A stretch of DNA of 64,000 bases from Escherichia coli. Its GTDB lineage: Bacteria > Pseudomonadota > Gammaproteobacteria > Enterobacterales > Enterobacteriaceae. A model generated the notes under the pieces. It worked only from the letters and a program-made list of their open reading frames with translations, had not been told where the DNA came from and searched no databases. Shown here piece after piece: positions 12,669 to 38,794 of the stretch. Location: NCBI RefSeq assembly GCF_044324875.1, contig NZ_CP172185.1; one strand, written 5' to 3'. The translations under genes and the position numbers were made by a program. Each line of letters starts with the position of its first letter. Within the stretch, counting starts at the first letter, position 1.

Positions 12669-13310
12669 TTGTATCAGGATAAAATTCTTGTCCGCCAGCT
12701 CGGTCTTCAGCCTTACGAGCCAATCTCCCAGGCTATGCATGAATTCACCGATACCCGCGATGAAAGTACCCTTGATGAAATCTGGCTGGTCGAGCACTAT
12801 CCGGTATTTACCCAAGGGCAGGCAGGAAAAGCGGAGCACATTTTAATGCCGGGTGATATTCCGGTGATTCAGAGCGATCGCGGTGGGCAGGTGACTTATC
12901 ACGGGCCGGGGCAACAGGTGATGTATGTGTTGCTTAACCTGAAACGCCGTAAACTCGGTGTGCGTGAACTGGTGACCTTGCTTGAGCAAACAGTGGTGAA
13001 TACCCTGGCTGAACTGGGTATAGAAGCACATCCTCGGGCTGACGCGCCTGGTGTCTATGTCGGGGAAAAGAAAATTTGCTCACTGGGTTTACGTATTCGA
13101 CGCGGTTGTTCATTCCACGGTCTGGCATTAAACGTCAATATGGATCTTTCACCATTTTTACGTATTAATCCTTGTGGGTATGCCGGAATGGAAATGGCTA
13201 AAATATCACAATGGAAACCCGAAGCGACGACTAATAATATTGCACCACGTTTACTGGAAAATATTTTAGCGCTACTAAACAATCCTGACTTCGAATATAT
13301 TACCGCTTAA
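12669..13310 (+). CDS. lipB: octanoyltransferase LipB
   Basis: 213 aa, TTG start; sequence matches remembered LipB. Confidence 0.9.
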
Positions 13311-13569
13311 TTGCATACATCAATGGCCCAATTTACGCTGGGTCATTACTCATAATACCTGCTAATGCTTTACATCTCCTTCGCGTTTGTATATTTTCTT
13401 TATCACTTGCAGAAATGCGATGCTACGCCTTGCTCCGTAACTCACCCCATTGATTAACTTATTGAAATAGTTGATTATGGTGAGCAAAAGCGTTCCGTTC
13501 CAATTAGACATAAGATTATTGTAATTTTTTTTAATATTATTTTTCCATGAATAAAATTGGAGTAAGTGC

Positions 13570-14523
13570 GTGGATAGTAATAATCAAATTGAAACCTGTT
13601 TAAGCAGAAAGTCGTCAGAAGGTAAACCACAAATATTTACAACCTTACGAAATATTGATCTTAACCTTCTGACTATTTTTGAAGCTGTATATGTACATAA
13701 AGGGATCGTTAATGCAGCGAAAGTGCTTAATCTGACACCCTCGGCAATCAGTCAGTCTATTCAGAAACTGCGCGTTATATTCCCTGACCCATTGTTTATT
13801 CGCAAAGGCCAGGGCGTCACTCCTACCGCATTTGCGATGCATCTACATGAGTATATCAGTCAGGGCCTTGAGTCCATTCTTGGCGCGCTGGATATCGAAG
13901 GAAGCTATGATAAGCAACGAACGATAACTATTGCGACCACCCCCTCGGTCGGAGCCCTGGTCCTTCCTGTCATCTATCGGGCGATTAAATCTCACTATCC
14001 GCAGCTTTTACTGCGCAACCCGCCCATCAGCGACGCGGAAAACCAACTCAGTCAGTTTCAAACCGATCTCATCATCGATAACATGTTTTGCACCAATCGT
14101 ACGGTGCAACATCATGTTCTGTTCACCGACAATATGGTGTTAATTTGCCGTGAGGGAAATCCACTACTCTCTTTAGAAGATGACAGGGAGACTATCGACA
14201 ACGCTGCGCATATACTCCTGTTACCGGAAGGGCAAAATTTCAGCGGTCTGCGGCAGAGAGTTCAAGAGATGTTTCCGGACCGGCAAATCAGTTTCACCAG
14301 CTACAACATTTTGACAATCGCTGCACTGGTTGCCAACAGTGACATGTTAGCGATTATTCCCAGCCGTTTTTATAACCTGTTTAGCCGTTGCTGGCCGCTG
14401 GAAAAACTGCCTTTTCCGTCCTTAAATGAGGAGCAAATAGATTTCTCTATCCACTACAACAAATTCAGCCTGCGTGATCCCATCCTGCACGGGGTAATAG
14501 ATGTTATCCGTAATGCATTTTGA
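13570..14523 (+). CDS. ybeF: LysR-family transcriptional regulator YbeF
   Basis: 317 aa, GTG start; N-terminal HTH (LNLTPSAISQSIQKLR); AT-rich coding sequence. Confidence 0.8.
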   Translation: MDSNNQIETCLSRKSSEGKPQIFTTLRNIDLNLLTIFEAVYVHKGIVNAAKVLNLTPSAISQSIQKLRVIFPDPLFIRKGQGVTPTAFAMHLHEYISQGLESILGALDIEGSYDKQRTITIATTPSVGALVLPVIYRAIKSHYPQLLLRNPPISDAENQLSQFQTDLIIDNMFCTNRTVQHHVLFTDNMVLICREGNPLLSLEDDRETIDNAAHILLLPEGQNFSGLRQRVQEMFPDRQISFTSYNILTIAALVANSDMLAIIPSRFYNLFSRCWPLEKLPFPSLNEEQIDFSIHYNKFSLRDPILHGVIDVIRNAF

Positions 14524-17834: not shown

Positions 17835-18395
17835 TCAAAACTGAAAGCGCATCCAGGCAAAGTACACATTGCCATTGTTATAGGTACCCGGAATGTAGGT
17901 CATCTGAAAAGTCACTGGACCATAACCCACAGAGGCCAATGGCAGTAGAACCGGGAGAGGGATGTAATTCCAGTTATCGCGTGCCGTTACGCCAGCGGTG
18001 AATCCCAGTCCTAAATGAAAATTTTCATCTGCCAGCGGTCGCCAGGTACTTTCCCATCCGTATCCGGCAATCGGTTCCCATTTGTTCCACGAGTCCTTAA
18101 ATGCCATGGCATACAGGCCATGCCAGTTTCCTTTTTCATCCCAACGCGACTGACCAAAACCGCCACCCCACGGTCGCTCGTTATAGCGATCGGTTTTTTC
18201 TTTGTCGTAAGCGAAACGTGCATGCCAGGTGATGGCAGGAATATATAAATCATAATGTTCAGGCTGTTGCCAGGTTTGTGCAATATTTTCTCTAAACGTT
18301 GTCATCCACTCATCTGCGTTAGCAAAAACTTTACCAACGCTGATTAACTGAATAAAAACAAAGGAAAAGATAGCGACATATTTACTCACGTTCAT
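17835..18395 (-). CDS. pagP: lipid A palmitoyltransferase PagP (CrcA)
   Basis: ORF trimmed to MNVSKY start (186 aa); signal peptide; outer-membrane beta-barrel with C-terminal aromatic. Confidence 0.9.
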
Positions 18396-18981
18396 TTGTG
18401 ACCATAAAACATTTATCAAAAATCTACTACTAGCATAGCAAAGCTACAATTAACATAACCTTAATAGCCCCAACATAAAGAACAATCTGAATAGCTGCTC
18501 TATTTATTTCCGCTTGTTTAAGTTAAATATTTCCGCGCATCGATTAAAGATGATGTATCGTTTTCTGCTATGGGAATAGTCATAAAAAAACCAAGTCTTT
18601 TTTGATGACAAAATACAACCAAGAAAAAATTACTTTATTTTTTAATAGGATACAAAAAAATCTCTTAACGAAGAATATATTATATATCGTCAACCTATGC
18701 TCATGTTAGATTATTTTTTGAGCGCACAGCCGCAGCTAACACCATTGCAATTAACAAATTTGCATCAATCCACCATCAATTTACACACATTATTATGTGA
18801 TAATTGCCAACCGCTAAATATGCGTTTTGTTATCTATGTATAAAAACAGCAAATTCAATGTCTTAATGGCAGTTTTTCTTGATTTTAATCAGCATTCATC
18901 GCCAATTTATTGGGCATATTTTTTCCTTAAGCTTTAGGAATTTTTTATTATTTACTTTGGGGCCTGGAGACAGGAAAAATT

Positions 18982-20367
18982 ATGCTGACATTCATTGAAC
19001 TCCTTATTGGAGTTGTGGTTATTGTGGGTGTAGCTCGCTACATCATTAAAGGGTATTCCGCCACTGGCGTGTTATTTGTCGGTGGCCTGTTATTGCTGAT
19101 TATCAGTGCCATTATGGGGCACAAAGTGTTACCGTCCAGCCAGGCTTCAACAGGCTACAGCGCCACGGATATCGTTGAATACGTTAAAATATTGCTAATG
19201 AGCCGCGGCGGCGACCTCGGCATGATGATTATGATGCTGTGTGGCTTTGCCGCTTACATGACCCATATCGGCGCGAATGATATGGTGGTCAAGCTGGCGT
19301 CAAAACCATTGCAGTATATTAACTCCCCTTACCTGCTGATGATTGCCGCCTATTTTGTCGCCTGTCTGATGTCTCTGGCCGTCTCTTCCGCGACCGGTCT
19401 GGGTGTTTTGCTGATGGCAACCCTGTTTCCGGTGATGGTAAACGTTGGTATCAGCCGTGGTGCAGCTGCTGCTATTTGTGCCTCCCCGGCGGCGATTATT
19501 CTCGCACCGACTTCAGGGGATGTGGTGCTGGCGGCGCAGGCTTCCGAAATGTCGCTGATTGACTTCGCCTTCAAAACAACGCTGCCTATCTCAATTGCTG
19601 CAATTATCGGCATGGCAATCGCCCACTTCTTCTGGCAACGTTATCTGGATAAAAAAGAACACATCTCTCATGAAATGTTAGATGTCAGTGAAATCACCAC
19701 CACTGCCCCTGCGTTTTATGCCATTTTGCCGTTCACGCCGATCATCGGAGTGCTGATTTTTGACGGCAAATGGGGCCCGCAATTACACATCATCACTATT
19801 CTGGTGATTTGTATGCTGATTGCCTCCATTCTGGAGTTCATCCGCAGCTTTAATACCCAGAAAGTTTTCTCTGGTCTGGAAGTGGCTTATCGCGGGATGG
19901 CAGATGCATTTGCAAACGTGGTGATGCTGCTGGTTGCCGCTGGGGTATTCGCTCAGGGGCTTAGCACCATCGGCTTTATTCAAAGTCTGATTTCTATCGC
20001 TACCTCGTTTGGTTCGGCGAGCATCATCCTGATGCTGGTATTGGTGATCCTGACAATGCTGGCGGCAGTCACGACCGGTTCAGGCAATGCGCCGTTTTAT
20101 GCGTTTGTTGAGATGATCCCGAAACTGGCGCACTCTTCCGGCATTAACCCGGCGTATTTGACTATCCCAATGCTGCAGGCGTCAAACCTCGGCCGTACCC
20201 TGTCACCCGTTTCTGGCGTAGTCGTTGCGGTTGCCGGGATGGCGAAAATCTCACCATTTGAAGTCGTAAAACGCACCTCGGTGCCGGTGCTTGTTGGGCT
20301 GGTGATTGTTATCGTTGCTACAGAGCTGATGGTGCCAGGAACGGCAGCCGCGGTCACAGGCAAGTAA
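18982..20367 (+). CDS. dcuC: anaerobic C4-dicarboxylate transporter DcuC
   Basis: 461 aa polytopic membrane protein matching remembered DcuC. Confidence 0.93.
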   Translation: MLTFIELLIGVVVIVGVARYIIKGYSATGVLFVGGLLLLIISAIMGHKVLPSSQASTGYSATDIVEYVKILLMSRGGDLGMMIMMLCGFAAYMTHIGANDMVVKLASKPLQYINSPYLLMIAAYFVACLMSLAVSSATGLGVLLMATLFPVMVNVGISRGAAAAICASPAAIILAPTSGDVVLAAQASEMSLIDFAFKTTLPISIAAIIGMAIAHFFWQRYLDKKEHISHEMLDVSEITTTAPAFYAILPFTPIIGVLIFDGKWGPQLHIITILVICMLIASILEFIRSFNTQKVFSGLEVAYRGMADAFANVVMLLVAAGVFAQGLSTIGFIQSLISIATSFGSASIILMLVLVILTMLAAVTTGSGNAPFYAFVEMIPKLAHSSGINPAYLTIPMLQASNLGRTLSPVSGVVVAVAGMAKISPFEVVKRTSVPVLVGLVIVIVATELMVPGTAAAVTGK

Positions 20368-21088: not shown

Positions 21089-22715
21089 TAGGTTTCACTT
21101 TCGGAATATAGATTGAAAATAAGGTACCGCAGGGATCATTATCTTCGAGAGTGATAACACCACCGCAGCGCGTTACGTAGCTGGCAATCAAGTACAACCC
21201 AATGCCATGTTCGCCGGGCTCGTCAGCACGCGTACTGACACCCTGCTCAAATATTTTGTCTCGTAGAGACTCTGGAACGCCGCAGCCCTGATCGGCGACT
21301 TCAATCACCACATCATCGCCTTCATCGCTGAGGAATAATTCAACGATCTTGTTTCCTTCATCGCTACGCAGGCTGGCTTCGAAGGCGTTATCAAGTAAAT
21401 TGCCAACAATGGCTGCAAACTCGGTGCTGTCCAGTCCTGGCGGCAGTTGCGAAAGCTGACTTCCGGGGACGATGACCATTTTTAGCCCCAGTTCGCGGGC
21501 GCGCTGCACTTTACCAAAAAGCAGCCCCGCCACCTGGCGATCGGCAAACGCCTCGCGCAGGCTATCAATAAGCTGTTGCTGGGCCTGAGACTCCCCCTGC
21601 ACCATCGCCAACACGCGATCATACTCTTTCATCTGCAACAGACCATTGAGCGTCGACATCCAATTGAGATGCTCGTGTCGCAATGTGCGCAGGCTCTCGA
21701 CGTATTGTTTAATTTGCGTCAGTTGCGCATTGAGGGTGGATATTTCGTCTTTACTACGAAAGCTGATAATGGCCCCCAGCAAATCATCACCAGAACGAAT
21801 AGCTTCCCGGTTGGCAATAACGCTCAGACCGTTAAAGTTCGCCACCACATCCTGACGTTTTTCATCAATCTGTTCGGTAAAGAAATCGGCGGGCCTGACC
21901 ACTTCAGCAATGGGTTTACCCAACCATTGCCGTCCGGGGGAACTCAGACCCAGCATCTTTCTTGCGTTACGATTGATGGCGGTAATGTAACCATGCGGAT
22001 CCACCGCAATGAGCCCTTCATAAACCGAACTAAACAGCGCCTCTTGCTGACGGACCACGCGTGCGATTTGCTTTGGCTCCATGCCCATCATCTGCCGACG
22101 GATATGCGCGGCCAGGAACCACGACAGCAACATCAGAATCCCTAACAGCACGACAAACACGCCAGCCATCGGTAATAAAAACTCAGCCCGCCAGCTATCG
22201 ATTTTACTCACCAGGTAGCCAATCGACACCACGCCGATGACTTTTCCATCGTCATCAAAGATTGGCGTTTTGGCACGCATCGCCATGCCAATTGACCCTT
22301 TCCCGGTGATGAAGTAGCTCTCCCCTTTCTCCAGCGCGCCCGGTTTGGTGAACTGCATAGGATAACCAATTTTCTCCGGATTAGGATGGTAAAGACGAAT
22401 CGAGTGCCGATCGCCAATCACCACATAATCGAAATCAGTATCTCTTTGTAATTTGTTAGCGATGGTCGCCAGCCTCTTGTAGTCACGCGTTTTCACTGCG
22501 CTGATGATACTGTCATTAGAAGCAATAATTTTTGCCTGATTCATTGCCATGTCGCGCACATGAAGCGTTAAATAGTCCTCAAAACTGGCCGTAAAATATT
22601 GCGCCAGGGCTGCAATGACAAATATTGAGAACACCAGAATCAGCAAAAAGATACGCAGCGGAAATGCCAGTCTTTGGAAAAATGCAAACTGTTTATTCTC
22701 GTTAAGCTGCAACAT
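21057..22715 (-). CDS. dpiB: citrate-sensing histidine kinase DpiB (CitA)
   Basis: ORF 21057..22775 trimmed to MLQLNENK start (552 aa); two TM segments flanking a periplasmic sensor domain; H-box HEHLNWM; ATPase domain. Confidence 0.9.
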   Translation of the reverse strand: MLQLNENKQFAFFQRLAFPLRIFLLILVFSIFVIAALAQYFTASFEDYLTLHVRDMAMNQAKIIASNDSIISAVKTRDYKRLATIANKLQRDTDFDYVVIGDRHSIRLYHPNPEKIGYPMQFTKPGALEKGESYFITGKGSIGMAMRAKTPIFDDDGKVIGVVSIGYLVSKIDSWRAEFLLPMAGVFVVLLGILMLLSWFLAAHIRRQMMGMEPKQIARVVRQQEALFSSVYEGLIAVDPHGYITAINRNARKMLGLSSPGRQWLGKPIAEVVRPADFFTEQIDEKRQDVVANFNGLSVIANREAIRSGDDLLGAIISFRSKDEISTLNAQLTQIKQYVESLRTLRHEHLNWMSTLNGLLQMKEYDRVLAMVQGESQAQQQLIDSLREAFADRQVAGLLFGKVQRARELGLKMVIVPGSQLSQLPPGLDSTEFAAIVGNLLDNAFEASLRSDEGNKIVELFLSDEGDDVVIEVADQGCGVPESLRDKIFEQGVSTRADEPGEHGIGLYLIASYVTRCGGVITLEDNDPCGTLFSIYIPKVKPNDSSINPIDR

Positions 22716-22912
22716 TGTTTTCCTTGCGGGTTGTCCCGAGCCTCTTTGACGGATGTAATTAAAATGTTGAATCAAAATACATAGATATTAAATATAATCG
22801 TGGCAAATTTTATTCATTAAATCAATTAAATCACTTAAACCTGCGGGTCATTTCGTAATTACATTAATTAAAAAACTTAAAACCATTAAATAAATAAAAA
22901 ACCACTAACTCT

Positions 22913-22936
22913 ATGTGAAATAAATCAAAATTTCAC
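22913..22936. promoter_or_regulatory. perfect 7-bp inverted repeat in the dpiB/citC divergent control region
   Basis: TGTGAAAT-N8-ATTTCACG inside an A/T-rich spacer with reiterated ATTAAAT-like motifs; binding factor not assigned. Confidence 0.3.
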
Positions 22937-23094
22937 GCTGCAATACTCCTTAGGATGTATAGCGAAAGGAGAAAAAGATATACCTCGATCGCCCCCCTTT
23001 CTCCCAAGTGAAAATAAAAGGTTATCAGTTTGCAACATCGAACAACATTCGTTGCAAATCGATAACAACATGCACCTTCAGGATACTATTTATT

Positions 23095-24153
23095 ATGTTC
23101 GGCAATGATATTTTCACCCGTGTAAAACGTTCAGAAAATAAAAAAATGGCGGAAATCGCCCAATTCCTGCATGAAAATGATTTGAGCGTTGACACCACAG
23201 TCGAAGTATTTATTACCGTAACCCGCGATGAAAAGCTTATCGCGTGCGGTGGAATTGCCGGAAATATTATTAAATGCGTTGCTATCAGTGAATCCGTTCG
23301 CGGTGAAGGACTGGCGCTGACATTAGCCACCGAGCTAATTAACCTCGCCTATGAGCGGCACAGCACGCATCTGTTTATTTATACCAAAACCGAATACGAG
23401 GCGCTGTTCCGCCAGTGCGGTTTTTCCACGCTGACCAGTGTACCCGGCGTGATGGTGCTGATGGAAAACAGCGCCACGCGACTGAAACGCTATGCCGAAT
23501 CGCTGAAAAAATTTCGTCATCCAGGGAACAAGATTGGCTGCATTGTGATGAACGCCAATCCCTTTACGAATGGTCACCGTTATCTGATTCAACAGGCTGC
23601 AGCACAGTGCGACTGGTTGCATCTGTTTTTAGTTAAAGAAGATTCTTCACGCTTTCCCTATGAAGACCGGCTGGATCTGGTGTTAACAGGCACCGCCGAT
23701 ATTCCACGCCTGACTGTGCATCGCGGCTCCGAATACATCATCTCCCGCGCTACGTTCCCTTGCTACTTCATTAAAGAACAGAGCGTCATTAACCATTGTT
23801 ACACCGAAATTGATCTGAAGATTTTCCGTCAGTACCTCGCTCCCGCGCTGGGTGTAACTCACCGCTTTGTCGGTACTGAACCCTTTTGTCGCGTTACCGC
23901 CCAGTACAACCAGGATATGCGCTACTGGCTGGAAACGCCGACTATCTCCGCACCGCCCATCGAACTGGTTGAAATTGAGCGGCTGCGTTACCAGGAGATG
24001 CCGATATCCGCTTCCCGGGTACGTCAACTGCTGGCGAAAAACGATCTCACGGCTATCGCGCCGCTGGTCCCTGCAGTCACGCTGCATTATTTGCAGAACC
24101 TGCTTGAGCACTCCCGCCAGGACGCGGCAGCTCGTCAAAAGACCCCCGCATGA
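23095..24153 (+). CDS. citC: [citrate (pro-3S)-lyase] ligase
   Basis: ORF 23008..24153 trimmed to MFGNDIF start (352 aa); first gene of citCDEFXG. Confidence 0.88.
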   Translation: MFGNDIFTRVKRSENKKMAEIAQFLHENDLSVDTTVEVFITVTRDEKLIACGGIAGNIIKCVAISESVRGEGLALTLATELINLAYERHSTHLFIYTKTEYEALFRQCGFSTLTSVPGVMVLMENSATRLKRYAESLKKFRHPGNKIGCIVMNANPFTNGHRYLIQQAAAQCDWLHLFLVKEDSSRFPYEDRLDLVLTGTADIPRLTVHRGSEYIISRATFPCYFIKEQSVINHCYTEIDLKIFRQYLAPALGVTHRFVGTEPFCRVTAQYNQDMRYWLETPTISAPPIELVEIERLRYQEMPISASRVRQLLAKNDLTAIAPLVPAVTLHYLQNLLEHSRQDAAARQKTPA

Positions 24154-31449: not shown

Positions 31450-31535
31450 TCCGCTCAAATATCAACCAGATTTATCATTTTGCTCTTAAGCGCAGCATTC
31501 TAATCTGAACTGGTTATTCATCTGCGGAACCTCAT

Positions 31536-31625
31536 ATGAGCGAAGCTCTCGGTATCACTGCATTTTATATATTCATAGCCGCAATTATTGTTGCTGCAGT
31601 GCTATACCTTGAACAACGCTGGTAG
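31536..31625 (+). CDS. candidate 29-codon micro-ORF encoding a single-TM peptide (hypothetical)
   Basis: ATG...TAG, MSEALGITAFYIFIAAIIVAAVLYLEQRW; GGAA about 8 nt upstream; hydrophobic core of about 19 residues; below the 60-aa cutoff of the supplied ORF track. Confidence 0.2.
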   Translation: MSEALGITAFYIFIAAIIVAAVLYLEQRW

Positions 31626-31748
31626 CGCCTGGTTTTATTTATTTTCCAGCTCAATAGCAAATTCAGATCAAATCAGCCTCGCAAATCATAGATTCATAAC
31701 CAATAATGTGCTGTTATGTATACATGCAAAAACAAGGAGAGAATGCTT

Positions 31749-33969: not shown

Positions 33970-34033
33970 AAGAATTAGGTGAATTTCCGAAGTATTTCGC
34001 GCCGGAGTTGGTAGCGCGAAAGACGAAGGAAAT

Positions 34034-34597: not shown

Positions 34598-34968
34598 CTA
34601 TACTTCCTCCGTGTTTTCGATGAGATGTAAGGTAACCAATTTTTGCCGATTCGGCTAATGCGTTTCCATTATCAAATCGATAAGTTTTACCTTACAACCT
34701 TCGTAAGACAACTTTGTGAACTTTGCACCGCCAGCGGCGATAAAAAGTAAAATGGCCCCCTTTCCAGGTGACCGTGTAATCTGAACTACCCTTTGGTATC
34801 TTCAGCGCCTGCCTGCAGGCTGAGGTGTTGCCCTTACAAATGCAACAACGACATGGATTACAACACCCTCATAAACAAAGGGCAATCACCTGATCTAAGC
34901 TCTTACCTATGACAGTGATAGGTTATGCCTTTTACCCGACTTTTGCACTGACTGAAAAGGACAAATTA

Positions 34969-35715
34969 ATGTTAAAAAAGATACTTTTACTGGCTCTGCT
35001 TCCTGCAATCGCCTTCGCAGAGGAACTTCCTGATCCAGTAAAAGCGATTGAAAAACAGGGTATTACGATCATCAAAACGTTCGATGCCCCCGGAGGAATG
35101 AAAGGTTATCTCGGAAAGTATCAGGATATGGGCGTCACCATCTACCTGACTCCAGATGGTAAGCACGCTATCTCTGGTTACATGTACAACGAGAAAGGTG
35201 AAAACCTGAGTAACACACTTATCGAAAAAGAAATTTACGCACCAGCCGGACGCGAAATGTGGCAACGGATGGAACAATCCCACTGGCTCCTCGACGGTAA
35301 AAAAGACGCGCCGGTCATTGTTTACGTCTTCGCCGATCCGTTCTGCCCGTATTGTAAACAGTTCTGGCAGCAGGCGCGCCCGTGGGTAGATTCTGGCAAA
35401 GTGCAATTAAGAACATTGTTGGTTGGGGTTATCAAGCCAGAAAGCCCGGCGACAGCAGCGGCAATTCTTGCCTCCAAAGATCCCGCAAAAACCTGGCAAG
35501 AATATGAAGCCTCTGGTGGCAAGCTTAAGCTAAACGTGCCTGCAAACGTAAGTACAGAGCAAATGAAAGTGTTAAGCGACAACGAGAAACTGATGGACGA
35601 TCTGGGGGCAAATGTCACACCAGCTATCTATTACATGAGTAAGGAAAATACTCTGCAACAGGCCGTGGGGTTGCCCGATCAGAAAACGCTTAATATCATT
35701 ATGGGGAATAAATAA
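34969..35715 (+). CDS. dsbG: periplasmic thiol:disulfide interchange protein DsbG
   Basis: ORF trimmed to [11 protein letters not shown] start (248 aa); signal peptide; thioredoxin-fold CPYC motif; divergent from ahpC. Confidence 0.9.
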
Positions 35716-35922
35716 AATATAATTCATGGATGGTTGAAATATATCCCTGCTTTTCAACCATCCTAAAAAAGCATGAATTGCTCGCTCTACCCTAAGTGGC
35801 TGTGCTATTTTAGAAAAACTTAATCCTGAGTTAAGCAAAAAAACATAATACAAATAAATACAACAGCAACATTATTGATCAAGTGAATGATTTATAGAAG
35901 AGATAATATAACGGAGTATGTT

Positions 35923-36825
35923 ATGGCGAATCTTTATGACCTAAAAAAATTTGATCTGAATTTACTGGTCATATTTGAGTGTATTTATCAACATCTCAGC
36001 ATTAGTAAAGCGGCAGAATCATTATATATAACGCCCTCTGCTGTTAGTCAGTCGTTACAACGTTTACGTGCGCAATTTAATGACCCGTTATTCATTCGCT
36101 CAGGGAAAGGTATCGCGCCGACTACGACAGGGTTAAATCTGCATCATCATCTTGAGAAAAATCTCAGAGGCATTGAACAAACGATCAATATTGTTAATAA
36201 GTCTGAGCTAAAGAAAAATTTTATTATCTACGGTCCTCAGCTTATTTCTTGTACTAATAACAACATGCTAATCCGCTGTCTTAGACAAGATACTTCAATC
36301 GATATAGAATGCCATGACATACTGCTTTCAGCTGAAAATGCCGAAGAACTGTTGGTTCAACGCAAAACTGACCTGGCAATTACACTACAACCAGTAATTA
36401 GCCGCTCTGTCATCTGCATGCCGTTACATACTATTCGCAATTCTCTTATATGTAGCAACAAACATCCTCGTATTACCGATACCAGTAACTATGAACAAAT
36501 TATCGCCGAAGAATTCACCTTGTTAATATCTAAATCAGCAGGGATTGACGAAATTCAAATGGACATAGATGAACGTTTTATGAACCGTAAAGTTTCATTT
36601 CGCAGTTCTTCTTTGTTGACGATAATTAATAGTATTTCTGTTACTGACTTATTGGGCATTGTGCCCACCGAACTGTACGATTTACATCGTGATTTTTTGA
36701 AGTTACAAGAGATAAAACTGGAACGACCACTTCCTGCGGTTAAACTTTATATTTCCTATAACAAGGCTTCGTTGAACAACCTTGTCTTCTCACGATTCAT
36801 AGATCGTTTAAATGATAGCTTCTGA
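35923..36825 (+). CDS. ybdO: LysR-family transcriptional regulator YbdO
   Basis: ORF trimmed to MANLYDLKKFDLNLL start (300 aa); N-terminal HTH; conspicuously AT-rich coding sequence. Confidence 0.8.
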   Translation: MANLYDLKKFDLNLLVIFECIYQHLSISKAAESLYITPSAVSQSLQRLRAQFNDPLFIRSGKGIAPTTTGLNLHHHLEKNLRGIEQTINIVNKSELKKNFIIYGPQLISCTNNNMLIRCLRQDTSIDIECHDILLSAENAEELLVQRKTDLAITLQPVISRSVICMPLHTIRNSLICSNKHPRITDTSNYEQIIAEEFTLLISKSAGIDEIQMDIDERFMNRKVSFRSSSLLTIINSISVTDLLGIVPTELYDLHRDFLKLQEIKLERPLPAVKLYISYNKASLNNLVFSRFIDRLNDSF

Positions 36826-36971
36826 TTTATTACCACGGATAAATGTTATATTACGCATCAATTGATTCATTGTGTGAATATAAAATAATGTGCTCTATCT
36901 TGCTTCGTTTACCCTATAATTAGCGGATTCATCTCACGAGTCACCCCGTAACGTTCAGAGAGCGTTTTCAG

Positions 36972-38192
36972 ATGTCTATTTATAAAATCCCGCTTCCACT
37001 GAATATTCTGGAAGCTGCAAAAGAACGTATTACCTGGACACTTAACACCCTACCCCGCGTCTGCGTTTCTTTTTCGGGTGGTAAAGATTCCGGATTAATG
37101 CTGCATCTGACCGCCGAACTTGCCCGACAAATGGGCAAAAAAATTTGTGTTTTATTTATCGACTGGGAAGCTCAGTTCTCTTGCACCATTAACTATGTTC
37201 AGTCCCTGCGCGAGTTGTACACCGATGTCATCGAAGAGTTTTACTGGGTTGCGCTCCCGCTTACAACGCAAAATTCCCTATCACAATACCAACCCGAATG
37301 GCAGTGCTGGGAACCTGATGTCGAATGGGTACGTCAGCCCCCGCAAGATGCGATAACCGATCCTGACTTTTTCTCCTTTTACCAGCCTGGCATGACCTTC
37401 GAACAATTTGTGCGTGAGTTTGCCGAATGGTTTTCGCAAAAACGTCCGGCGGCGATGATGATCGGCATCCGTGCGGATGAGTCCTACAACCGTTTTGTCG
37501 CCATCGCCAGTTTAAATAAACAACGTTTTGCCGATGATAAGCCCTGGACCACTGCCGCACCAGGCGGTCATAGCTGGTACATTTACCCCATCTACGACTG
37601 GAAAGTCGCTGATATCTGGACCTGGTATGCTAGCCATCAACGCCTCTGTAACCCACTGTATAATATAATGTATCAGGCAGGCGTTCCTCTACGTCATATG
37701 CGAATTTGCGAACCTTTTGGTCCGGAACAACGGCAAGGATTATGGCTCTATCACGTTATCGAACCGGATCGCTGGGCTGCTATGTGCGCACGAGTCAGCG
37801 GGGTAAAAAGTGGCGGCATTTACGCCGGACATGACAACCATTTTTATGGTCATCGGAAAATCCTCAAGCCCGAACATTTAGACTGGCAGGAGTATGCATT
37901 ATTGCTACTCAACAGCATGCCGGAGAAAACAGCTGAGCATTATCGCAATAAAATCGCCATTTATTTGCACTGGTATCAGAAAAAAGGCATCGAGGTTCCA
38001 CAAACCCAGCAAGGGGACATTGGCGCGAAAGATATCCCCTCCTGGCGGCGAATATGCAAAGTTTTACTCAATAACGATTACTGGTGTCGGGCATTATCAT
38101 TTAGCCCGACCAAAGCGAAGAACTATCAGCGTTATAACGAACGAATAAAAGGAAAACGTCAGGAATGGGGGATACTATGCAACAACGATTAA
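36972..38192 (+). CDS. ybdN: PAPS-reductase-like / PP-loop ATP pyrophosphatase family protein YbdN (IbrA-like)
   Basis: 406 aa; PP-loop SGGKDS at residues 35-40 (nt 37074..37091); 3' end overlaps ybdM by 28 nt. Confidence 0.8.
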   Translation: MSIYKIPLPLNILEAAKERITWTLNTLPRVCVSFSGGKDSGLMLHLTAELARQMGKKICVLFIDWEAQFSCTINYVQSLRELYTDVIEEFYWVALPLTTQNSLSQYQPEWQCWEPDVEWVRQPPQDAITDPDFFSFYQPGMTFEQFVREFAEWFSQKRPAAMMIGIRADESYNRFVAIASLNKQRFADDKPWTTAAPGGHSWYIYPIYDWKVADIWTWYASHQRLCNPLYNIMYQAGVPLRHMRICEPFGPEQRQGLWLYHVIEPDRWAAMCARVSGVKSGGIYAGHDNHFYGHRKILKPEHLDWQEYALLLLNSMPEKTAEHYRNKIAIYLHWYQKKGIEVPQTQQGDIGAKDIPSWRRICKVLLNNDYWCRALSFSPTKAKNYQRYNERIKGKRQEWGILCNND

Positions 38193-38794
38193 CGCAGGAT
38201 TTAACCCAATTTCTCGCCAGCTTGCCGGAAGACGATCGCATCAAAGCGATTAATGAAATCCGCATGGCGATCCATCAGGTTAGCCCCTTTCGAGAAGAGC
38301 CAGTGGATTGCGTTCTGTGGGTTAAAAACAGCCAACTTATGCCTAATGATTACAACCCAAACAACGTGGCACCACCCGAAAAAAAACTGCTGAAAAAATC
38401 CATTGAAATAGATGGTTTTACCCAACCCATTGTGGTCACGCATACGGATAAAAATGCCCTGGAAATCGTGGATGGTTTTCACCGCCATGAAATTGGTAAA
38501 GGCTCATCATCGTTAAAATTACGCTTAAAAGGTTATTTGCCGGTGACCTGTCTGGAAGGTACGCGTAATCAACGCATCGCCGCGACTATTCGTCATAACC
38601 GCGCTCGTGGTCGCCACCAAATCACTGCCATGTCCGAAATTGTTCGTGAACTCAGCCAGTTGGGATGGGACGATCATAAAATCGGCAAAGAGCTGGGAAT
38701 GGACAGCGACGAAGTGCTGCGCCTGAAACAAATTAATGGCCTGCAAGAGTTGTTTGCCGACCGTCAATATTCCCGTGCCTGGACTGTCAAATAA
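38165..38794 (+). CDS. ybdM: ParB/Srx-like domain protein YbdM (IbrB-like)
   Basis: 209 aa; DGFHR motif (nt 38471..38485) resembling the DGQHR/ParB box. Confidence 0.8.
   Translation: MGDTMQQRLTQDLTQFLASLPEDDRIKAINEIRMAIHQVSPFREEPVDCVLWVKNSQLMPNDYNPNNVAPPEKKLLKKSIEIDGFTQPIVVTHTDKNALEIVDGFHRHEIGKGSSSLKLRLKGYLPVTCLEGTRNQRIAATIRHNRARGRHQITAMSEIVRELSQLGWDDHKIGKELGMDSDEVLRLKQINGLQELFADRQYSRAWTVK

Follow-up and report, generated by a model that had tools for sequence, protein, structure and literature searches.

Between dsbG and the gene pair ybdN-ybdM (ybdNM) of Escherichia coli lies ybdO (citR), a gene for a LysR-type regulator that is much richer in A+T than its surroundings. Does such a gene lead a foreign module that arrived recently and is kept silent as a whole by H-NS, or is it an old resident of the chromosome? 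We addressed this question in a 64,000-nt stretch of E. coli DNA (assembly GCF_044324875.1, contig NZ_CP172185.1), which is called the window here and whose positions are counted from its first letter. An original prediction, made from the letters of the window, had suggested that ybdO leads a horizontally acquired, H-NS-silenced ybdO-ybdNM cassette. The AT-rich LysR gene and its status as an H-NS target were confirmed by our analysis, while the recent module, the leader gene, the H-NS-silenced cassette and a hairpin belonging to the island were not. We consider it highly probable that ybdO/citR is an old, H-NS-silenced resident, that CitR represses ybdNM, that ybdO exists in old recombining allele classes, and that the hairpin belongs to dsbG. 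The central part of this account is already known: ybdO has been published as an H-NS-silenced, AT-rich "ancient horizontally transferred gene", and CitR as the repressor of ybdNM.

Identity and Base Composition of ybdO

Of 5426 complete E. coli genomes, 5422 contain the dsbG-ybdO(citR)-ybdN-ybdM-ybdL locus, with annotations of citR, ybdN and ybdM for its middle genes. The locus of the window is collinear with b0604-b0600 of K-12, where ybdO/citR (b0603), ybdN (b0602) and ybdM (b0601) have the same order, orientation and neighbours (dsbG, ahpCF, ybdL, hcxA). Two coding sequences (CDS) are needed at this point:

34969..35715, + strand: dsbG CDS, the left flank of the island; the open reading frame extends upstream to an ATG at 34909; 98.1% identical to K-12 dsbG
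35923..36825, + strand: ybdO/citR CDS, encoding a 300-aa LysR-type regulator; allele of class alpha (see below)

The annotated start of CitR is the ATG at 35923, with the Shine-Dalgarno sequence GGAG at 35913-35916. YbdO scored 452 bits against the NCBIfam CitR equivalog NF047710 (cut-off 400). The next-best families were YbeF (169 bits) and LeuO (100 bits), both E. coli LysR-type regulators. Pfam recognised HTH_1 at residues 12-70 (1.7e-18) and LysR_substrate at residues 137-298 (4.9e-10), the architecture of a LysR-type transcriptional regulator (LTTR). The AT-rich gene, ybdO/citR, encodes a LysR-type regulator that belongs to the LeuO/YbeF subgroup, and YbdO forms an orthologous group separate from YbeF and LeuO, since the scores for these two fall below their family cut-offs. 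LeuO is the textbook example of an H-NS-silenced LTTR that itself counteracts H-NS. While LeuO antagonises H-NS, the likeness of CitR to LeuO lies here in the sequence family score only.

The region 35716-36825 has a G+C content of 0.359, compared to a mean of 0.519 for the window (standard deviation 0.049 for 1110-bp segments). Only 0.27% of all 1110-bp segments are as poor in G+C, and the minimum of the whole window begins at 35801. In a 300-bp profile the trough spans about 35.55-37.05 kb with values of 30-38%. The G+C content of ybdO is 0.366-0.371 (0.345 at third codon positions), and that of the spacers on its two sides is 0.316 (dsbG-ybdO) and 0.363 (ybdO-ybdN), compared to 0.463 for dsbG, 0.498 for ahpC, 0.474 for ybdN, 0.470 for ybdM and 0.545 for ybdL. 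Codons ending in A or T make up 65% of ybdO versus 39-52% of the neighbouring genes, and ATA is used 10 times. Both the sliding G+C and the values of single genes bear out the suggestion that ybdO and its upstream spacer are far richer in A+T than dsbG, ahpC and ybdL. The AT run ATGATTTATAGAAGAGATAATATAACGG that had been quoted in its favour was also found; it lies at 35887-35914, within the 5′ untranslated region (UTR) of ybdO. The comparison of ybdO-ybdNM with the core flanks gave a divided result: ybdO is distinct in G+C and codon usage, whereas ybdN and ybdM are not strongly AT-rich, with values merely about 5-9 points under those of ybdL/hcxA and close to that of dsbG. With the AT-rich spacer on either side of it, ybdO makes up an AT-rich feature of about 1.3-1.5 kb.

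The closest paralogue of ybdO in the window is ybeF (the YbeF model mentioned above, 169 bits), about 22 kb away. The 5′ end of ybeF and the spacer between ybeF and lipB lie in another G+C trough, at 13001-13951 (minimum 35%), and both LysR paralogues flanking the cit locus are AT-rich.

Control of ybdO by H-NS

Higashi et al. (2016) took ybdO, as an H-NS-bound "horizontally transferred gene", for their test case (PMC4720273). Chromatin affinity precipitation with sequencing (ChAP-seq) gave H-NS peaks over ybdO in strains K-12, SE11 and SE15, dsbG was tabulated as H-NS-bound in all three strains, and a PybdO-lac fusion was derepressed in an hns mutant (PMC4720273). The transcription start was mapped 107/106 nt upstream of the ATG by 5′ rapid amplification of cDNA ends and differential RNA sequencing. 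Deletion analysis revealed that repression by H-NS requires an upstream element from −250 to −176 and an intragenic element from +27 to +164, and strain-specific negative elements that do not depend on H-NS are also present within the coding region (PMC4720273). The arrangement was explicitly likened to the silencing of bgl and proU (PMC4720273); these are catabolic and transport operons, whereas ybdO encodes a regulator. Fan et al. (2022) observed binding of H-NS to the ybdO promoter in electrophoretic mobility shift assays (EMSA), and, in a K1 strain, relief of repression at acid pH; in the K1 hns mutant ybdO expression was 2.2-fold higher (PMC9141747). The suggestion that ybdO is a low-GC regulator gene and an H-NS target is supported by its G+C content together with these ChAP-seq, lac fusion, EMSA and quantitative RT-PCR data, and silencing of the AT-rich LysR gene by H-NS is already established by published experiment. 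The regulatory experiments were mainly performed on the beta allele (K-12, SE11) and on SE15 or RS218, not on the exact haplotype of the window.

The following elements were located in the window:

35674..35748, no strand: upstream regulatory element (URE) for H-NS, K-12 positions −250 to −176 transferred by alignment (+/−1 nt); overlaps the left arm and the loop of the stem-loop behind dsbG
35781..35800, no strand: −35 segment of PybdO, dimorphic in the alignment (type 1/type 2)
35803..35811, + strand: extended −10 region of PybdO, TGcTATTTT; the published start maps to about 35816-35817
35819..35835, no strand: palindrome CTTAA-N7-TTAAG, positions of about +3 to +19 in the ybdO transcript; candidate LysR operator (T-N11-A type)
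35949..36086, no strand: downstream regulatory element (DRE) for H-NS, +27 to +164, inside the ybdO CDS; from deletion analysis (PMC4720273)

The 3′ end of dsbG falls inside the URE. The core promoter sequence TGCTAYTTTAG (35803-35813) is invariant in all Escherichia haplotypes and can still be recognised in Citrobacter. The same holds for the palindrome just downstream: all Escherichia haplotypes share its half-sites without change and vary in the spacer between them, and Citrobacter has TTAA-N7-TTAA at the same place. CTTAA-N7-TTAAG has its sole exact match in the 64 kb at this position, a frequency that is not significant by itself, and a window-wide search found no second such operator at PybdN or at the cit promoters. 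Upstream of citR, chromatin immunoprecipitation with exonuclease treatment showed a CitR peak, and a footprint-predicted site is reported there as well (PMC9068703). We propose the palindrome as a putative auto-operator of CitR.

The ybdNM Promoter and the Regulatory Circuit

How does ybdO relate to the two genes that follow it? The features of this part of the locus are:

36826..36971, + strand: ybdO-ybdN spacer, 146 bp, 36.3% G+C, with the −10 region TATAAT of the ybdNM promoter at 36915-36920 and a conserved 5′ UTR
36972..38192, + strand: ybdN, with Pfam domains PAPS_reduct (30-234) and DUF3440 (237-383); a PP-loop protein resembling 3′-phosphoadenosine 5′-phosphosulfate (PAPS) reductase; target of repression by CitR
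38165..38794, + strand: ybdM, ParB-N-terminal, IbrB-like; 28-nt overlap with ybdN, with which it is co-transcribed; matches the ParB-like family phrog_2159 with 234 bits

TATAAT and the proximal 5′ UTR are kept in the alpha, beta and gamma haplotypes; the remaining spacer is 63-71% identical. The ybdO gene "seems to be a single cistron" (PMC4720273), and ybdNM was reported as a separate operon by Rodionova et al. (2022), who renamed YbdO as CitR (PMC9068703). In their study deletion of citR strongly raised the levels of ybdN and ybdM, and also of citCDEF, and the low base means of ybdNM indicate poor expression in laboratory culture (PMC9068703). YbdM has been described as completely uncharacterised, and its level was increased 29-fold in cells with a CTX-M-15 plasmid (PMC8764527). 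No terminator-like site after ybdO was called by a promoter/terminator scan, which was itself uninformative (see below), and some read-through is possible.

From these data ybdNM has its own conserved promoter and ybdO is not an operon leader. The idea that ybdO leads a ybdN-ybdM cassette conflicts with the single cistron, with the conserved TATAAT in front of ybdN and with the occurrence of ybdNM without ybdO. The demonstrated silencer of ybdNM is CitR (PMC9068703), not H-NS as had been supposed for the cassette.

Taken together, the published data give a circuit in which H-NS represses citR and CitR represses ybdNM, rather than a simple H-NS-silenced operon. H-NS bound to the upstream (about 35674-35748) and intragenic (35949-36086) elements holds the ybdO promoter at a basal level, and this repression is reported to be eased in stationary phase and at acid pH. 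The scarce CitR is reported to bind upstream of citR and to repress the separate ybdNM operon and citCDEF; in K1 it activates kpsM (PMC9141747). We infer that CitR would bind the palindrome CTTAA-N7-TTAAG at 35819-35835.

Three points weigh against this account. The CitR operator was assigned from its conservation alone, and the number of motif matches in the window is not significant by itself. The phenotypes of ybdO mutants conflict between studies: opposite effects on virulence were found in avian pathogenic E. coli (APEC; PMC11681634 versus PMC9141747). Finally, H-NS occupancy may extend on the right as far as the AT-rich ybdN promoter.

Allele Classes of ybdO

When the ybdO CDS of the window was compared to 5426 E. 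coli genomes, the identities were bimodal: 1771 genomes showed 95-100%, only 2 showed 90-95%, and about 3570 showed about 79-80%. For ybdNM and ybdL the identity to the window was 95-99% in about 4500 genomes. K-12 belongs to the distant group, and its ybdO is 79.7% identical to that of the window at the nucleotide and 88.4% at the amino acid level, with a synonymous divergence (dS) of 2.07 and a ratio of nonsynonymous to synonymous divergence (dN/dS) of 0.032. At four-fold degenerate sites the two strains differ by 54% in ybdO, by 22% in ybdN and by 8% in dsbG. Codons 1-83 of ybdO, which encode the helix-turn-helix (HTH) region, contain 30 silent differences and not a single amino acid change. 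The divergence is confined to one block:

35848..37100, no strand: hyper-divergent haplotype block that runs from the 5′ UTR of ybdO through its CDS and the ybdO-ybdN spacer into ybdN, of which the first ~130 bp are included

In a sliding comparison with K-12 the identity is 65-87% within this block and 93-100% outside, and the block coincides with the G+C trough.

The haplotypes fall into three classes. Class alpha contains the window, 2017C-4173W12, ATCC 25922 and 2021CK-00607, and SE15 is also alpha-like; class beta contains K-12, O157:H7 and 95JB1; class gamma contains E. whittamii and Escherichia sp. E1V33. Between alpha and beta the CDS is 78.6-79.8% and the spacer 66-71% identical (70% for the window and K-12), whereas the flanks are 94.4-99.7% identical whatever the class. 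Within a class, ybdO diverges as its flanks do: between the window and SCPM-O-B-8794 (a basal lineage of Escherichia that was deposited under E. coli), both alpha, dS is 0.61 for ybdO and 0.46-0.72 for the flanks, and between K-12 and Escherichia sp. MOD1-EC7003, both beta, it is 0.20 for ybdO and 0.17-0.46 for the flanks. The neighbour-joining (NJ) tree of ybdO joins the alpha E. coli with SCPM-O-B-8794 and the beta E. coli with MOD1-EC7003 (each 100% bootstrap). The tree of the flanks joins all E. coli with MOD1-EC7003 and places SCPM-O-B-8794 at the base (each 100%).

A second dimorphism affects the −35 segment of PybdO. Type 1 is present in the window, K-12, O157 and 95JB1, type 2 in ATCC 25922, 2021CK and MOD1-EC7003. 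Identity over 35716-35799 is 95-100% within the types and 72-83% between them, and this partition cuts across the coding classes. Because the partition by −35 type differs from that by coding class, the window haplotype is a recombinant of a type-1 upstream segment with an alpha coding block. Recombination at this locus has its breakpoints within the conserved core promoter and near the start of ybdN, in its 5′ end.

The comparison thus revealed discrete classes, saturated silent divergence, normal flanks, sharing across species and conflicting trees, as expected for ancient, trans-species allele classes. It points to at least three old ybdO allele classes with saturated silent sites, which appear to be under strong purifying selection, common to several Escherichia species and re-assorted by recombination. 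A stronger version of this view is a trans-species polymorphism, in which the classes would predate the Escherichia species (dS between classes about 2 or higher, dN/dS about 0.03) and alpha and beta would coexist in E. coli together with an independently assorting −35 module. We put this forward tentatively, with chances somewhat short of even. If true, the allele carried could explain the contradictory CitR phenotypes in K1, APEC and K-12, and the "fast evolution under H-NS" reported for ybdO would be deep coalescence.

Two points speak against this account of the alleles. The allele classes were derived from one genome per non-coli Escherichia species by the simple NG86 and NJ methods, and values of dS above 1 are only lower-bound-type estimates; on this sampling, old introgression may explain the pattern as well as a maintained trans-species polymorphism. 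Moreover, the E. coli classes may merely follow a deep phylogroup split, for which a single old replacement would be enough. In that case a single import from another Escherichia lineage, by homologous recombination via the conserved dsbG and ybdN flanks, would have brought in one of the classes (beta in phylogroups A/B1/E, for instance), which was then inherited vertically without balancing selection. The sharp block edges at about 35848 and 37100 fit such an import, as does the close counterpart that each class has in another Escherichia species, and the occurrence of alpha in ATCC 25922-like and window-like strains and of beta in K-12, O157:H7 and 95JB1 is compatible with the deep split. 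However, the divergence between coli and non-coli members of each class equals that of the flanks, so that neither class looks like a late import. The independent dimorphism of the −35 segment, with its different partition of strains, requires at least two exchange events, and a like discordance is seen in the Citrobacter freundii complex. We regard a single replacement as a serious but doubtful alternative to a maintained polymorphism.

In the C. freundii complex, pairs of species share 90-94% identity in YbdN but only 65-72% in YbdO, while the pair of loci L026/L028 shows 94.8% for YbdN and 97.0% for YbdO. This pattern, which does not follow a clock, hints at similar behaviour of ybdO throughout the family.

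Among metagenome-assembled genomes (MAGs), two labelled Bacteroides and Lachnospiraceae (L002, L063) also contained a beta-type ybdO, on short contigs with a ybdN 99% identical to that of E. coli. These copies almost certainly stem from E. coli DNA that contaminated the bins.

A Stem-Loop Downstream of dsbG

The spacer upstream of ybdO contains a further element:

35728..35763, + strand: stem-loop with a perfect 12-bp stem (arms 35728-35739 and 35752-35763) and a 12-nt loop

A hairpin with a 12-bp stem had been predicted just after dsbG; it is indeed present, with its end at 35763 and not at 35762 as claimed. Its first nucleotide is the 13th after the stop codon of dsbG, which leaves 12 nt in between, and its fold was more stable than those of all shuffled sequences (200/200, z = −3.5). 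Five of the 12 pairs are G-C, TAAAAAAG follows directly 3′ of the stem, and the + strand has no U-tract. With no U-tract and a loop of more than 8 nt, 35728-35763 differs from an intrinsic terminator, and the terminator scan made no call here. This promoter/terminator scan was not enriched over shuffled sequences and missed both the mapped PybdO and the stem-loop, and is therefore uninformative. A search of Rfam over 35500-37100 gave just one sub-threshold chance match and no known RNA family on the stem-loop or the spacers.

In the alignment across Escherichia the stem is conserved and the loop is variable. Escherichia sp. E1V33 carries three compensatory double changes, which convert the arms GGATGGTTGAAA/TTTCAACCATCC to GGATAACTGAAA/TTTCAGTTATCC. 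A stem-loop of different sequence is found at the equal position after dsbG in Citrobacter, in Pseudocitrobacter and in genera without ybdO. As the structure is conserved with compensatory changes, we take 35728-35763, despite its non-canonical form, to be a real stem-loop of another or weaker kind. It is best read as a 3′ element of dsbG (terminator or mRNA stabiliser), since it is present after dsbG even in genera that lack ybdO; its proposed membership in the AT-rich island was not borne out for the same reason. The absent U-tract and the 12-nt loop count against this assignment in so far as they leave the terminator role merely possible, and a role at the DNA level inside the URE is possible too.

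Such a DNA-level role would make the stem-loop part of ybdO regulation, as a nucleation site for H-NS, a cruciform or an insulator against read-through from dsbG. It is in agreement with the position of the stem-loop, within the mapped URE or at its border, with the missing canonical U-tract and with the deletion to −176, which abolishes H-NS-dependent repression and cuts the stem-loop in half (coordinates transferred by alignment). We consider it unlikely, as the compensatory changes in the stem and the variable loop indicate selection on pairing, and an equivalent stem-loop follows dsbG where there is no ybdO at all.

Evolutionary Rate of ybdO

The coding region of ybdO and its spacer are among the top 50 for substitution rate (PMC4720273). 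According to Higashi et al., this diversity arises in place, with silencing by H-NS relaxing constraint and allowing faster substitution. In line with this model, core genes bound by H-NS show a higher dN and a slightly higher dS genome-wide (PMC4720273), and between genera YbdO diverges about 3-4 times faster than YbdN (dN 0.33-0.45 versus 0.09-0.13). Acceleration in place nevertheless seems quite improbable to us for ybdO. Within an allele class its rate equals that of the flanks, albeit in a small sample, the identities across 5346 genomes are bimodal with almost nothing intermediate, and a dN/dS of 0.03 does not indicate relaxed constraint. The conflict between the ybdO and flank trees (100% bootstrap) and the species pairs in which YbdO is more conserved than YbdN also contradict this model. 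Since within-class divergence of ybdO matches that of the flanks, a faster clock of ybdO is not indicated; the sequence comparison argues that its high "substitution rate" reflects deep coalescence of recombining haplotypes, not relaxed, H-NS-sheltered evolution.

The extreme diversity of ybdO, the published showcase for H-NS-facilitated diversification, would thus be better explained by old recombining allele classes under strong purifying selection. This reinterpretation matters for the reading of "evolutionary rates" of H-NS-bound genes across the genome. The dimorphism of the −35 segment could also underlie the strain-specific promoter behaviour seen by Higashi et al. (PMC4720273), and experiments on ybdO should name the allele (alpha or beta) and the promoter type used.

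Age and Loss of the Locus

We scanned one genome per species for synteny and obtained ybdN orthologues in 67 loci, 42 of which could be scored for the G+C content of ybdO. The order ahpC-(dsbG)-ybdO-ybdN-ybdM-ybdL is kept in Escherichia, Citrobacter, Salmonella, Enterobacter, Lelliottia, Pseudocitrobacter, Superficieibacter and Huaxiibacter, and synteny of ybdO-ybdNM spans more than 10 genera. The G+C content of ybdO was below that of ybdN by 8.2 ± 2.1 points and below that of ybdL by 14.2 ± 2.1 points in all 42 scored loci; this deficit follows the host genome and does not fade. Within E. coli, ybdO is present in 5346 of the 5426 genomes, with 80 lacking a match, which is not the patchy distribution of a recent island. 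No tRNA genes were found in 28-44 kb of the window; the repeats flanking the ybdO island are short and at chance level, the neighbours are core genes, and an integrase was not seen.

The gene has also been lost repeatedly. In the C. amalonaticus group, Phytobacter, Kosakonia and Pluralibacter, dsbG adjoins ybdNM directly; C. amalonaticus S646 (L017 4976-5188) retains a 70-aa LysR HTH remnant, a ybdO pseudogene; and several E. coli genomes (H13-H15, H60, H61) have IS1 inserted inside citR.

Because of the family-wide gene order and the stable G+C deficit, any acquisition of ybdO is ancient, not recent, and predates the sampled Enterobacteriaceae genera. The notion of a horizontally acquired ybdO-ybdNM module is countered by synteny in more than 10 genera, by the stable G+C offset and by the lack of mobility hallmarks. 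That ybdO, ybdN and ybdM form one recently acquired, AT-rich foreign module, led by ybdO and wholly silenced by H-NS, is very improbable: the G+C trough and the repression of ybdO by H-NS are real, ybdNM is poorly expressed in laboratory culture and its family is common on plasmids and in phages, but the gene order is syntenic in many genera, ybdNM has a near-host G+C content (0.47, like dsbG), occurs without ybdO, has its own conserved promoter behind a monocistronic ybdO and is repressed by CitR, and tRNA, integrase and repeat hallmarks were not found around the island.

With other AT-rich islands under xenogeneic silencing by H-NS, ybdO has in common its low G+C, its occupancy by H-NS and a low level of expression from which hns mutants are released. 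It differs from the typical case as a single-gene island of 1.3 kb that lacks mobility hallmarks, is distributed family-wide and shows no amelioration across many genera. Its long-kept AT-richness, a deficit of 8-14 points, is probably a maintained property tied to H-NS-dependent control and not the trace of a recent transfer. The locus calls for caution on two counts: AT-richness with H-NS binding does not equal recent acquisition, and adjacency does not equal co-silencing.

Relatives of the ybdNM Pair

Pairs resembling ybdNM, about 58% identical and with the same overlapping two-gene layout, are present on 855 plasmids. Examples are found on a Klebsiella virulence plasmid (L075 6989-8850), between fecIRA and iroBCDN, and on an E. 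coli IncF plasmid (L076 7001-8871), after a fimbrial operon. Full-length PHROG families exist for both YbdN and YbdM, and YbdM is annotated as IbrB-like, after the IbrA/IbrB-type pairs of a PAPS reductase and a ParB-N-terminal protein known from plasmids, phages and islands. On plasmids the pair is part of cargo regions (fec/iro, fimbriae) and has no CitR orthologue nearby, whereas the chromosomal ybdNM is syntenic and vertically inherited. More distant pairs were seen in a Tenericutes MAG (L065 2133-4318) and a Dechloromonas MAG (L067 6001-7748), with identities of 32-39% and 48-50%. We also considered a mobile module of LysR, PAPS-reductase and ParB genes and rejected it; the AT-rich LysR gene that adjoins the pair on the IncF plasmid is no CitR orthologue (38% identity over 56 aa only).

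A PADLOC search with YbdO, YbdN and YbdM gave only weak domain matches (DndC, BrxP and methyltransferase; E values of 1e-5 to 1e-3) and no defence system, and a PDB sequence search with YbdN and YbdM gave marginal matches only (Noc and a phage tail protein). By sequence similarity, the two-gene ybdNM unit appears to be much more widely spread than the Enterobacteriaceae locus. The family is linked to mobile elements, and the chromosomal copy is old and syntenic. Its abundance on plasmids and phages makes the pair a lead in its own right.

Other Observations in the Window

Two further G+C troughs were seen elsewhere in the window. One (18051-19251, minimum 29.8%) comprises the dcuC-pagP spacer and pagP, the other (22301-23401, minimum 35.2%) the 5′ end of citC and the citC-dpiB control region. 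At 31455-31730 the genes ybdR and yldA are absent: about 1.6 kb of K-12 sequence (L074 386-1996) are replaced by about 276 bp that have no match in K-12. The ahpC-ahpF spacer (about 34007-34014) is about 80 bp longer in K-12 than in the window, which may reflect a repetitive extragenic palindromic (REP)-type element that is present or absent depending on the strain.

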